A DNA stretch of 64,000 nt from Eledone cirrhosa (taxonomy: Eukaryota), in contig CAXHJY010001063.1 of assembly GCA_964016885.1 (NCBI GenBank), forward strand, positions 71,950 to 135,949. The letters run 5' to 3'. This document shows positions 37,433 through 43,435 of the stretch, one piece after another (within the stretch, counting starts at the first letter, position 1; every line of letters starts with the position of its first letter). The notes under the pieces were generated by a model. It was not told the DNA's origin, made no database searches, and worked only from the letters and a program-made list of their open reading frames with translations. A program made the position numbers and the translations under genes.

Positions 37433-38572
37433 ATATGAAATATAAGAATCAAAGAACTGTTCAAAACATTATTGTGCTTACAGCTGTTTCCTCCAAACCG
37501 AGGTTTGGATTCTTCGGAGCAATTTATTAATGCATGGACAGTTATATGACCTCCTTTTCAGCCGAGAGACATACCAATACATATTCAAACATTGATACAT
37601 ATTCAAACATTGGGGGTCAACATTCATTACAGAATTTAGAGTGGCAGTACACACTTCGAGATTACATTTATATTAATAGGTACAATCAAAAATCAAAGAT
37701 ATAGGTTAAAGTACAACATGAAGATAAGTGTTTATATAGTGCAAATGTTATATGTGTGGCACGCATGTGCGTCTTGTTTATATAGTGTGGCAGAGAGATA
37801 TGTGTGGTAGAGGCACTTAGGTAGGTAAATAAGAGTGTTAGGTTGGTAGATCTGGTGGCAAAGTCTTTATATGATTGATATAGTCTGTGTGTGGAGAAAT
37901 ATTATAAGCATTAAAGATAGTGCAAGCATTAAAAGTGTTATAAGTATTGGAGATGCACAGCGCAGGGATGTCAAGTAATTCATGTACTTCGGCATTTTCA
38001 TGGTCAAGGGAGTGTATATTTCGATTATATGCCTTTCACATAATCCACGACAATTCAGTTAGAGATCGTAGTCTGGTGTTCTTTAGTTCGATACAGGAGG
38101 TTGTTACGTTTCGAGAGACGCCATTGAATACCGGAAGTGTGTGTGTGGGTAAGGGGAGTTAATGCATGCGGGGAGGTAACTCTGGGGTTTCTATATCTAG
38201 CCATTAAAATGTGTCCCAATATAGACCCTAAATTCTATGGTGAGGTGCACCTTCCAAGAGAGACTTTTAAAGCATAAAGTGTACTAACTATAGAGTAGTT
38301 TAACTAAATTATGCTGAAGGTGATCATATTATTATTAAGGTGGATTAACCCATCTTAAGGTGCTACAAATGGAAATTATAGATGATGAGCGAGGATTCTA
38401 AATTAATGATCTCTGTGGTTGTAGTCTGCTCATATGACCAGGCGCGGTGATTGCAGGATTGCTTCAGGACCCAATGATCTCTGGTAAGATCTGGGTCATC
38501 GCTTGCTACATTGGATGTCGAAAGATAATCGTCCCCAGGCAGGCCAAAGGTCAATCCGCAGTCCTCGCGACC
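37433..38572 (-). repeat. Inverted copy of the element's 3' UTR/pLTR
   Basis: Near-identical reverse complement of 42149-43270; the ORF track shows mirrored ORFs (37947+/42559-, 38363-/42167+). Confidence 0.96.
37475..37521 (-). ncRNA. Hammerhead ribozyme, family A (inverted copy)
   Basis: Reverse complement of 39001-39047. Confidence 0.75.
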
Positions 38573-39254
38573 CAATACTTATAACACTTTTAATGCTTGC
38601 ACTATTTTTAATGCTTATAATATTTCTCCACACACAGACTATATCAATCATATAAAGACTTTGCCACCAGATCTACCAACCTAACACTCTTATTTACCTA
38701 CCTAAGTGCCTCTACCACACATATCTCTCTGCCACACTATATAAACAAGACGCACATGCGTGCCACACATATAACATTTGCACTATATAACCACTTATCT
38801 TCATGTTGTACTTTAACCTATATCTTTGATTTTTGATTGTACCTATTAATATAAATGTAATCTCGAAGTGTGTACTGCCACTCTAAATTCTGTAATGAAT
38901 GTTGACCCACAATGTTTGAATATGTATCAATGTTTGAATATGTATTGGTATGTCTCTCGGCTGAAAAGGAGGTCATATAACTGTCCATGCATTAATAAAT
39001 TGCTCCGAAGAATCCAAACCTCGGTTTGGAGGAAACAGCTGTAAGCACAATAATGTTTTGAACAGTTCTTTGATTCTTATATTTCATATAACTGCTCTGT
39101 AAATCATCTGATGTTTTTACATTGAGCTACTTAACTTACTGGTAATAAGGTAGTAATACATTACTGCCTACCACTATTTAGGGTGTGTGTAAAATACTTA
39201 CAACTGCTTAAGGTTTTGTGTTTACATAACCATAAATAGTATAACTAATACTAT
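38572..39254 (+). repeat. 5' pseudo-LTR (direct repeat)
   Basis: Matches 42771-43435 except for an extra 18-bp tandem unit (TGTTTGAATATGTATCAA) and rare substitutions. Confidence 0.96.
39001..39047 (+). ncRNA. Minimal type I hammerhead ribozyme with variant core CCGAAGA (family A)
   Basis: TGCT-CCGAAGA-ATCCAAAC-CTCG-GTTTGGAG-GAAA-CAGCTG-TA-AGCA; palindromic stem III, GUA triplet. Confidence 0.78.
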
Positions 39255-39296
39255 TAACTGCTCCATATCGTTGAGCTGACATATAATATTGCCAAT

Positions 39297-41756: not shown

Positions 41757-42770
41757 CAATGTCGGACTGGAACCTAACACCACATCTAGCATCAAACACC
41801 AGAGACACACCCTATACTACATACCCAACACTAGCTGATCCATTATAACACAAACAACGACATCCCTCTGGAACCCTTCGCAGGGAAAATACCCATTTAT
41901 ACCTCTACGGCAGGTGTGACAACATCCACCCACCTGGACGGCACTACACCGCTCTAAGGGTAATTTGAGCATGTATTGATCGGTTGGATGGTGTTGGGCA
42001 GAGGAAACACCTTCCTTAGACAGATGTAAAATGATTTAATCGAGTAGCGCTGTTGACCAGTAGGACCAGGCTGCTGAGCGCAGTGAGTGAATGCAATGCA
42101 ACTGCCGTGCGGGTTGTACGTATATGGATGATCTGACGGTCAGAGAGTGGTCGCGAGGACTGCGGATTGACCTTTGGCCTGCCTGGGGACGATTATCTTT
42201 CGACATCCAATGTAGCAAGCGATGACCCAGATCTTACCAGAGATCATTGGGTCCTAAAGCAATCCTGCAATCACCGCGCCTGGTCATATGAGCAGACTAC
42301 AACCACAGAGATCATTAATTTAGAATCCTCGCTCATCATCTATAATTTCCATTTGTAGCACCTTAAGATGGGTTAATCCACCTTAATAATAATATGATCA
42401 CCTTCAGCATAATTTAGTTAAACTACTCTATAGTTAGTACACTTTATGCTTTAAAAGTCTCTCTTGGAAGGTGCACCTCACCATAGAATTTAGGGTCTAT
42501 ATTGGGACACATTTTAATGGCTAGATATAGAAACCCCAGAGTTACCTCCCCGCATGCATTAACTCCCCTTAGCCACACACACACTTCCGGTATTCAATGG
42601 CGTCTCTCGAAACGTAACAACCTCCTGTATCGAACTAAAGAACACCAGACTACGATCTCTAACTGAATTGTCGTGGATTATGTGAAAGGCATATAATCGA
42701 AATATACACTCCCTTGACCATGAAAATGCCGAAGTACATGAATTACTTGACATCCCTGCGCTGTGCATCT

Positions 42771-43435
42771 CCAATACTTATAACACTTTTAATGCTTGCA
42801 CTATCTTTAATGCTTATAATATTTCTCCACACACAGACTATATCAATCATATAAAGACTTTGCCACCAGATCTACCAACCTAACACTCTTATTTACCTAC
42901 CTAAGTGCCTCTACCACACATATCTCTCTGCCACACTATATAAACAAGACGCACATGCGTGCCACACATATAACATTTGCACTATATAACCACTTATCTT
43001 CATGTTGTACTTTAACCTATATCTTTGATTTTTGATTGTACCTATTAATATAAATGTAATCTCGAAGTGTGTACTGCCACTCTAAATTCTGTAATGAATG
43101 TTGACCCACAATGTTTGAATATGTATTGGTATGTCTCTCGGCTGAAAAGGAGGTCATATAACTGTCCATGCATTAATAAATTGCTCCGAAGAATCCAAAC
43201 CTCGGTTTGGAGGAAACAGCTGTAAGCACAATAATGTTTTGAACAGTTCTTTGATTCTTATATTTCATATAACTGCTCTGTAAATCATCTGATGTTTTTA
43301 CATTGAGCTACTTAACTTACTGGTAATAAGGTAGTAATACATTACTGCCTACCACTATTTAGGGTGTGTGTAAAATACTTACAACTGCTTAAGGTTTTGT
43401 GTTTACATAACCATAAATAGTATAACTAATACTAT
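42771..43435 (+). repeat. 3' pseudo-LTR
   Basis: Direct repeat of 38572-39254; ends in (TA)n. Confidence 0.96.
43182..43228 (+). ncRNA. Hammerhead ribozyme, family A (3' pLTR copy)
   Basis: Identical to 39001-39047. Confidence 0.78.

Follow-up and report, generated by a model that had tools for sequence, protein, structure and literature searches.

A window of 64,000 nt from Eledone cirrhosa (contig CAXHJY010001063.1) contains an intact and likely young Penelope-like element (PLE) of the Hydra clade, inserted into a TA microsatellite at 37433..43435, and the two ends of this insertion likely mark two start sites of reverse transcription, each set by its own hairpin. The window is the whole stretch of DNA analysed, and all coordinates are positions within it. 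The limits of the element are exactly those of the original prediction, which had been made from the letters alone and had regarded it as a member of the Naiad clade. Taken as an element, the insertion adds another young Penelope family to a genome that abounds in them (in O. vulgaris 31 Penelope-like families are annotated as recently active; PMC13282606), and its value is mechanistic. How the telomerase-related PLEs choose the start of copying, and why they carry a tail and inverted arms, is described as an open question (PMC8557442), and in the literature found a single PLE has been reconstituted, which comes from another clade. The Hydra protein of the locus is intact and the two ends have been mapped along with the two candidate start signals, so that predictions at nucleotide resolution become available for testing in vitro.

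The complete tandem-plus-inverted architecture of a PLE is present, with pseudo-long terminal repeat (pLTR), inverted 5'-truncated copy and tail. The TA-microsatellite flanks expected from the original prediction are a left array of (TA)n and (TATATACA)n found by a repeat scan (34663..37436), which is the insertion target, and a right (TA)n array (43433..43506). Next to the left array lies the inverted arm (37433..38572, minus strand), the predicted 1.1-kb copy, which is 1,140 nt long and corresponds to 42149-43270 with 4 substitutions and an 18-nt indel. At 38572 it joins head to head, with 1 base shared as a 1-nt microhomology, to the 5' pLTR (38572..39254, plus strand, 683 nt), a partial tandem copy of the 3' pLTR (42771..43435, plus strand, 665 nt). 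These direct pLTRs are indeed near-identical and differ by 1 substitution and the same 18-nt indel, the 3' pLTR being the one without the 18-nt duplication. As the duplication was also found in contigs of the sequence runs X1, X5 and X7 (the summed contig depth of runs is not taken as copy number), the 3' copy has lost it. The element unit comprises 4,181 nt. Its single open reading frame (ORF; 39297..41756, plus strand) is followed by a 3' untranslated region (UTR) of 1.68 kb (41757..43435, plus strand), in which no ORF of more than 73 aa and no second ORF was found. The last 165 nt (43271..43435, plus strand) form a tail that is confined to the direct end and missing from the inverted arm. 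Both insertion ends finish in TAT and blend into the (TA)n target. It is very improbable that this repeat structure was created by the assembly, even if no contig of X1, X3, X8 and X9 spans the junction at 38572 among the 31 pieces listed of 1,148, where the loose ends continue normally. The three terminal copies each carry their own private differences, the layout is the one published for PLEs (PMC8557442), and the junction from pLTR to ORF is bridged unchanged by contigs in X1 and X8.

When both insertion ends are placed on the tandem copy, each is followed by the same 9-mer and then, 4 and 5 nt on, by a hairpin of the form GCUC...UU-GAGC. The ends are located 208 and 43 nt upstream of the ATG. 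Hairpin 1 (39094..39127, plus strand) is predicted to fold with a GCUC/GAGC lower stem, a 2-nt bulge on the 3' side and an upper stem of 6 bp, and hairpin 2 (39260..39276, plus strand), 37 nt ahead of the ATG, is a predicted fold of the same consensus, which is weak when taken alone. In unit numbering the inverted arm has its 3' end 4 nt ahead of hairpin 1, and the tail contains hairpin 1 at 43275-43308 and ends 5 nt short of the would-be start of hairpin 2. The interval from hairpin 1 to hairpin 2 is extended by about 100 nt (39130-39250), which form further predicted stems.

This relation between ends and hairpins was set down before the sequences of other loci were inspected. Scanning metagenomes we obtained 78 Hydra loci in 63 clusters, with 44 independent loci having at least 170 nt of upstream sequence. 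At least two hairpins were found in 26 of these, one in 11 and none in 7, compared to at least two in 53 of 8,800 shuffles and in 4 of 421 ORF windows used as controls. In 55 of 66 hairpins the bulge is directly topped by a Watson-Crick pair (C-G in 36, T-A in 18), with a permutation mean of 30 and a maximum of 45, and this count depends on the size of the 3' bulge, as it reaches 55 at 2 nt against 2, 2 and 14 at 0, 1 and 3 nt. The upper stem is also longer than in shuffled sequences (2.42 vs 1.41 bp), and hairpin 1 is located 50 nt past the predicted ribozyme cut in the element and 33-61 nt past it in 25 families. By eye the motif can be seen in Hydra-2_Amil, Hydra-1_Ajap and Hydra-2_Ajap (PMC8557442 supplement). 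A literature search, whose scope did not extend to subscription papers, Repbase notes, figures and bioRxiv supplements, found no description of twin hairpins, and the word "hairpin" is absent from the accessible main text of PMC8557442, 10.64898/2026.07.22.740005 and PMC7229834.

Using 45 hammerhead copies with a reference from the same family, we mapped where other insertions end. When 31 copies that continue across the junction and 5 that are cut off by the end of their contig are left aside, nine true ends from 7 families remain, all of them located 2-12 nt ahead of a hairpin (hairpin 1 in five cases, hairpin 2 in four), the chance expectation being 0.195 per end. The ends of the element itself recur in other samples, with two X3 contigs departing at 39089 and summed depth dropping after 39262 in X1 and X3. 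From these sequence comparisons we consider that the hairpins probably position the reverse transcriptase (RT). Several observations weigh against this. Hairpin 2 alone has a z of -0.46 with 52 of 200 shuffles equally good; the ACT found after GAGC in 48 of the 66 hairpins is missing from both hairpins of the element; the hairpins are spaced by 166 nt in the element compared to 55-83 nt in 25 families; and among the seven loci without a hairpin and the eleven with one, some lie at truncated ends. Since the loci are related, the covariation is inflated. The same-family filter was set after a looser pass had placed 9 of 21 rows by a hairpin, the other rows of that pass being 11 cross-family alignments and one duplicate. 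The depth in X8 shows no drop after 39262. Finally, the 10 nt preceding the hairpins are TA-rich, so microhomology to the target could place the ends.

The last point leads to an alternative which we regard as unlikely, though it is the strongest of the rivals, namely that the hairpins just recruit the protein, for packaging or cis preference, or affect translation, with the position of the ends being dictated by TAT microhomology of the RNA to the nicked (TA)n. Such a process would fit the TA-rich 10-mers preceding most hairpins, the TAT at both element ends, which merge into the target, and the fact that (TA)n is the target of nearly all Hydra families. However, the unit is AT-rich throughout, and yet the nine mapped ends as well as both ends of the element lie not more than 12 nt from a hairpin, and the ends of four loci (L002, L015, L037 and L038) enter flanks that are not (TA)n. 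Clearly less probable still is that the motif acts as DNA, with the endonuclease recognising it and resolving a longer intermediate, the ends then being cleavage points and not RT starts. The tail has been attributed to endonuclease-mediated resolution (PMC8557442), and PMC11167929 cites work in which recognition by the D. virilis endonuclease depended on the tail. Against it, the covarying pair above a fixed, one-sided 2-nt bulge and the upper stem exceeding that of shuffled sequences fit a single-stranded fold, and in the reconstituted Poseidon element of Anolis carolinensis (PAc) the ends of the tail coincide with RT start sites (PMC11167929).

Returning to hairpins as start signals, we slightly favour a model in which Hydra elements carry a duplicated cis-acting RNA signal that sets two RT starts, each protomer with its target strand having its own. 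Transcription from the 5' pLTR would yield the RNA for translation into the RT-GIY-YIG protein, which, perhaps as a dimer, would bind the hairpins and nick both (TA)n strands, and each nick would prime cDNA immediately 5' of one hairpin. The cDNA from hairpin 2 would have 4,864 nt, corresponding to 1.16 units, and would give tail, body and 5' pLTR. The cDNA from hairpin 1 would have 1,140 nt and, being made on the other strand, would give the inverted arm, and both cDNAs would be joined head to head at 38572. As 4,864 nt exceed the unit, a multimeric or circular template would be needed, either a multimeric RNA or a 4,181-nt unit cut by the hammerhead ribozyme (at 39043 and 43224) and circularised, with both hairpins at its 5' side. 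The circle is the weakest step of the model and counts against it, because the U4C ribozyme described below may cut poorly and PAc needs no ribozyme in vitro.

The model resembles what has been described for PAc, where both strands are cut and extended, copying starts inside the RNA, a stem-loop holds two RT start sites with the tail between them and the in vitro activity is independent of the ribozyme (PMC11167929). PAc differs in that its starts fall within the ORF, 111-118 nt into it, where an AC-rich stem-loop is located (PMC11167929), whereas the ends of our element precede the ATG, each next to its own conserved hairpin, and are separated by the 165-nt tail. If the duplicated signal is real, the tail and the tandem-plus-inverted insertions would be explained in one step. 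It would also mean that both start sites were used in a single insertion and that a spacer of 2.5 times the usual length is tolerated, and the intact enzyme and the signals that go with it might then be of use for (TA)n-targeted insertion, as a portable start tag.

All three terminal copies carry a predicted hammerhead of the same type I layout, with a 4-bp helix I, the core CCGAAGA, a 7-bp helix II, a GAAA and a palindromic helix III. The copy in the 5' pLTR (39001..39047, plus strand) shows a U4C core and an A-G at the base of helix II, and is predicted to be cut after 39043; the 3' copy (43182..43228, plus strand) would be cut after 43224, and the copy in the inverted arm (37475..37521, minus strand, core at 37517) has limits mapped from the 3' copy. 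A relaxed descriptor of this fold matches 1 of 1,000 shuffles, and a search of Rfam gave no hammerhead, just miRNA matches driven by the microsatellite. Position 4 of the core is C in the element and U in 68 of 69 flank matches of the metagenome loci, and the 26 published Hydra rows all have CUGA and thus U at this position (PMC8557442). As mismatch-free contigs of X1, X5 and X7 also show the C, it is characteristic of the family and did not arise by decay of the present copy. Among the 69 flank matches a single other hammerhead-like motif, at ~2658 (plus strand) of locus L039, shares the C at position 4, and no twin hairpins follow it. U4C reduces in vitro activity of a hammerhead but sustains viroid infection (PMC3088659), and by analogy the candidate ribozyme of the element may cleave poorly. 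Its palindromic helix III is compatible with a dimeric action as described in PMC4209133.

Concerning its relationship, the protein almost certainly belongs to the Hydra clade of PLEs, judged from its domain order and motifs. That it is a PLE at all, as originally claimed, is borne out by a telomerase-like RT and a GIY-YIG endonuclease in one ORF together with the pLTR layout. Naiad elements show an N-terminal GIY-YIG, the motifs DKA, CCHH and CX2-5CxxC, a CxC domain between endonuclease and RT and usually an IFD, whereas elements of the Hydra clade combine a C-terminal nuclease with RWK, DKT, CxCX5C, CxxC and CxH, lack CCHH, do not conserve the N-terminal GxKF/Y and use (TA)n targets (PMC8557442). 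In our protein the YRDD of the RT (aa 354) precedes the nuclease (aa 697-808). The RWK-type motif is present as RWR at aa 38, the sole GxK[FY] match is at aa 573 with none in the N-terminal part, and aa 123 starts a DKT and not a DKA. CxxC (776), E782, N795 and CxH (804) are found in the nuclease region, and the insertion into (TA)n is a target of the Hydra type. No CCHH exists, as just a single, unconserved Cys (701) lies between GIY and YIG; CX2-5CxxC has no match in the 819-aa protein; a CxC domain ahead of the RT is absent, with one Cys (205) before aa 523; and between RT3 and RT4 there is no gap relative to the homologue P0017 that an IFD would cause, the spacing being by eye that of the published Hydra rows.

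Naiad identity is therefore ruled out by domain order and motifs, and we leave it next to no chance, although the (TA)n target, the tandem and inverted structure and the length of 4.2 kb are all compatible with it and octopods do harbour Naiads. With that clade the element shares the GIY-YIG and telomerase-like RT, the architecture of pLTR, inverted copy and tail, the (TA)n bias and a similar length, and differs in the reverse domain order and the missing DKA, CCHH, CX2-5CxxC and IFD (PMC8557442) as well as in the presence of a hammerhead fold. The motifs GLYRDD, FNPPF and CxC..CPL..C, on which the Naiad assignment had been based, are those described for the Hydra clade (PMC8557442).

A homologue search gave 305 proteins, and in the 120 best, which were listed, the RT is followed by the Cys linker in 114 and DKT occurs in 95. 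P0017 can be aligned along the whole ORF with 32% identity and is itself, by eye, ~85% identical over 79 aa to Hydra-1_Amil (~12 of 79 residues differ; PMC8557442); the best full-length database match among the matches listed reaches 39%. We also reconstructed a quick, midpoint-rooted tree of 61 rows (60 of 121 proteins and one fragment), consisting of database homologues only, with P0017 standing in by eye for Hydra-1_Amil and no outgroup from other clades, in which the protein falls into a group of 8 rows (SH-aLRT 100) with a protein from Argonauta hians and a second Hydra remnant of the window. From this grouping an octopod is the likely host.

Like Hydra-1_Obim, Hydra-1_Amil and Hydra-1_Ajap the element has a single ORF with RT and then GIY-YIG, RW[KR], DKT, CxCX5C, CxxC and CxH, neither CCHH nor IFD, and a (TA)n target (PMC8557442). 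The pLTR hammerhead is canonical in the published families, and that of the element is a candidate with a type I layout. The element is a distinct, new family of the described Hydra clade with an unusually long 3' UTR, a long tail and a candidate ribozyme with a U4C core. Its unit of 4.18 kb compares to 1.1-3.0 kb listed for published Hydra elements and exceeds the "generally" less than 3 kb of the clade, which is a descriptive value (PMC8557442), owing to the long 3' UTR and two inserts in the protein. The distance from stop codon to hammerhead is 1,430 nt compared to ~94-524 nt in the metagenome Hydra loci, and the ORF encodes 819 aa compared to a median of 707. While Hydra-1_Obim is listed without a pLTR (PMC8557442), our element has a full pLTR and an inverted arm.

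The ORF was assigned from the ORF list, motifs and fold matches. As predicted it is uninterrupted, and dinucleotide-shuffling the unit 200 times gave stop-free frames of up to 147 aa, compared to the 819 aa observed. The catalytic motifs were likewise located, with VIY at aa 697 and YVG at aa 712 in addition to the YRDD, and FNPPF at aa 546. Two inserts are predicted to be disordered, one of low complexity (aa 482-539; 40740..40913, plus strand) and one rich in Asn, Thr and Ser (aa 621-676; 41157..41324, plus strand), the latter followed by the Hydra-diagnostic CxCX5C linker (aa 678-686; 41328..41354, plus strand). The GIY-YIG domain (41385..41720, plus strand) was assigned by motif and structure comparison. 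Among 70 nuclease sequences Y699, Y712, G714, R723, H727, E782, N795, C776, C779, C804 and H806 are invariant, and the element conforms at all 18 columns that are invariant across these domains; for Y699, R723, E782 and N795 we assume the roles generally known from GIY-YIG enzymes. With every invariant residue retained the enzyme is, by its sequence, intact.

The predicted structure has a mean predicted local distance difference test score (pLDDT) of 81, and of 92 in the C-terminal domain. The best fold matches of the RT are telomerases (TERTs; Z 17.4, root-mean-square deviation 4.1, 298 aligned residues), and the top six fold rows for the C-terminal domain are the GIY-YIG nucleases T4 EndoII and Hpy188I, all of them weak (best E 0.18). 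Speaking against the assignment, Pfam gave no significant match for either RT or GIY-YIG on the 819-aa protein. Its GIY-YIG model matches 2 of 17 aligned relatives, the protein of the element not being among them, and a sequence search of the PDB with the 819-aa protein also gave nothing significant.

The element is very likely young, as had been proposed, because 5 of the 1,787 sites duplicated within it differ between the copies (0.28%) and the nearest contig pieces of X1, X5 and X7, which bear three organism labels, differ from it at 10 of 2,822, 18 of 3,415 and 13 of 2,260 sites (0.35, 0.53 and 0.58%), more diverged pieces having been left out of this comparison. These nearest pieces are gap-free across the ORF. 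In the 40 pieces listed of 287 the ORF shows 27 differences, 14 silent and 13 not, none of which creates a stop, and frameshifts do occur in more diverged relatives. Using the octopus calibration quoted in PMC13282606, the age is estimated as ~0.4 million years (0.13-0.9), a value that is valid only for an octopus host and would be overestimated by copying or assembly errors. Near-identical copies were found under four organism labels, and as these labels are coded, close kin and horizontal transfer look alike. No RNA data set was among the matching ones listed, which bears on expression in neither direction. Transposition competence is plausible because all invariant residues are kept, and from its sequence we see about an even chance that this copy can still move.

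Further Hydra sequences are present in the window. A 5'-truncated element of another family at 46694-49370 (plus strand), the second remnant mentioned above, lies in (TA)n, shows 40-51% aa identity and contains one stop. It has a 3' UTR of ~1.4 kb and a hammerhead with canonical core at 49262; apart from one 16-nt match no similarity was found between its 3' UTR and that of the main element. The Hydra lineage of this host may be characterised by long 3' UTRs. A third remnant at 45003-45720 consists of an endonuclease fragment (45003-45341, minus strand) head to head with a plus-strand end, which carries a hammerhead-like motif at 45531 and, at 45638, a variant of the hairpin whose stem is ACUC/GAGU.

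Directly adjoining the right side of the main element, a non-coding two-armed element occupies 43507-44050, and 22492-23124 belongs with it; hammerheads with canonical cores are found at 43702 (minus strand), 43948 (plus strand) and 23023 (plus strand). The shorter arm stops just ahead of a small ACUC/GAGU palindrome. This two-armed element is likely retrozyme-like or a truncated Penelope end. Two more hammerhead-like motifs are located near TA repeats at 60378 and 60815 (plus strand). Six other hammerhead-like motifs of the window escaped the strict hammerhead descriptor and were called by eye.

The remaining features are repeats of other kinds. A 28-bp satellite with 662 copies, 94% matches and a strong G- and A-skew fills 1-18544, and a 51-bp tandem array of 89 copies with long open frames extends over 27635-32162. 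Two fragments of reverse transcriptases of the long interspersed nuclear element (LINE) type at 19609-21283 and 50928-52742 (plus strand) we take, by eye, to be RTE-like and CR1-like. An unclassified repeat of ~450 nt, which starts in a TA microsatellite, is present in four copies that are 89-95% alike (44046-44512, 45718-46416, 52831-53398 and 63322-64000).

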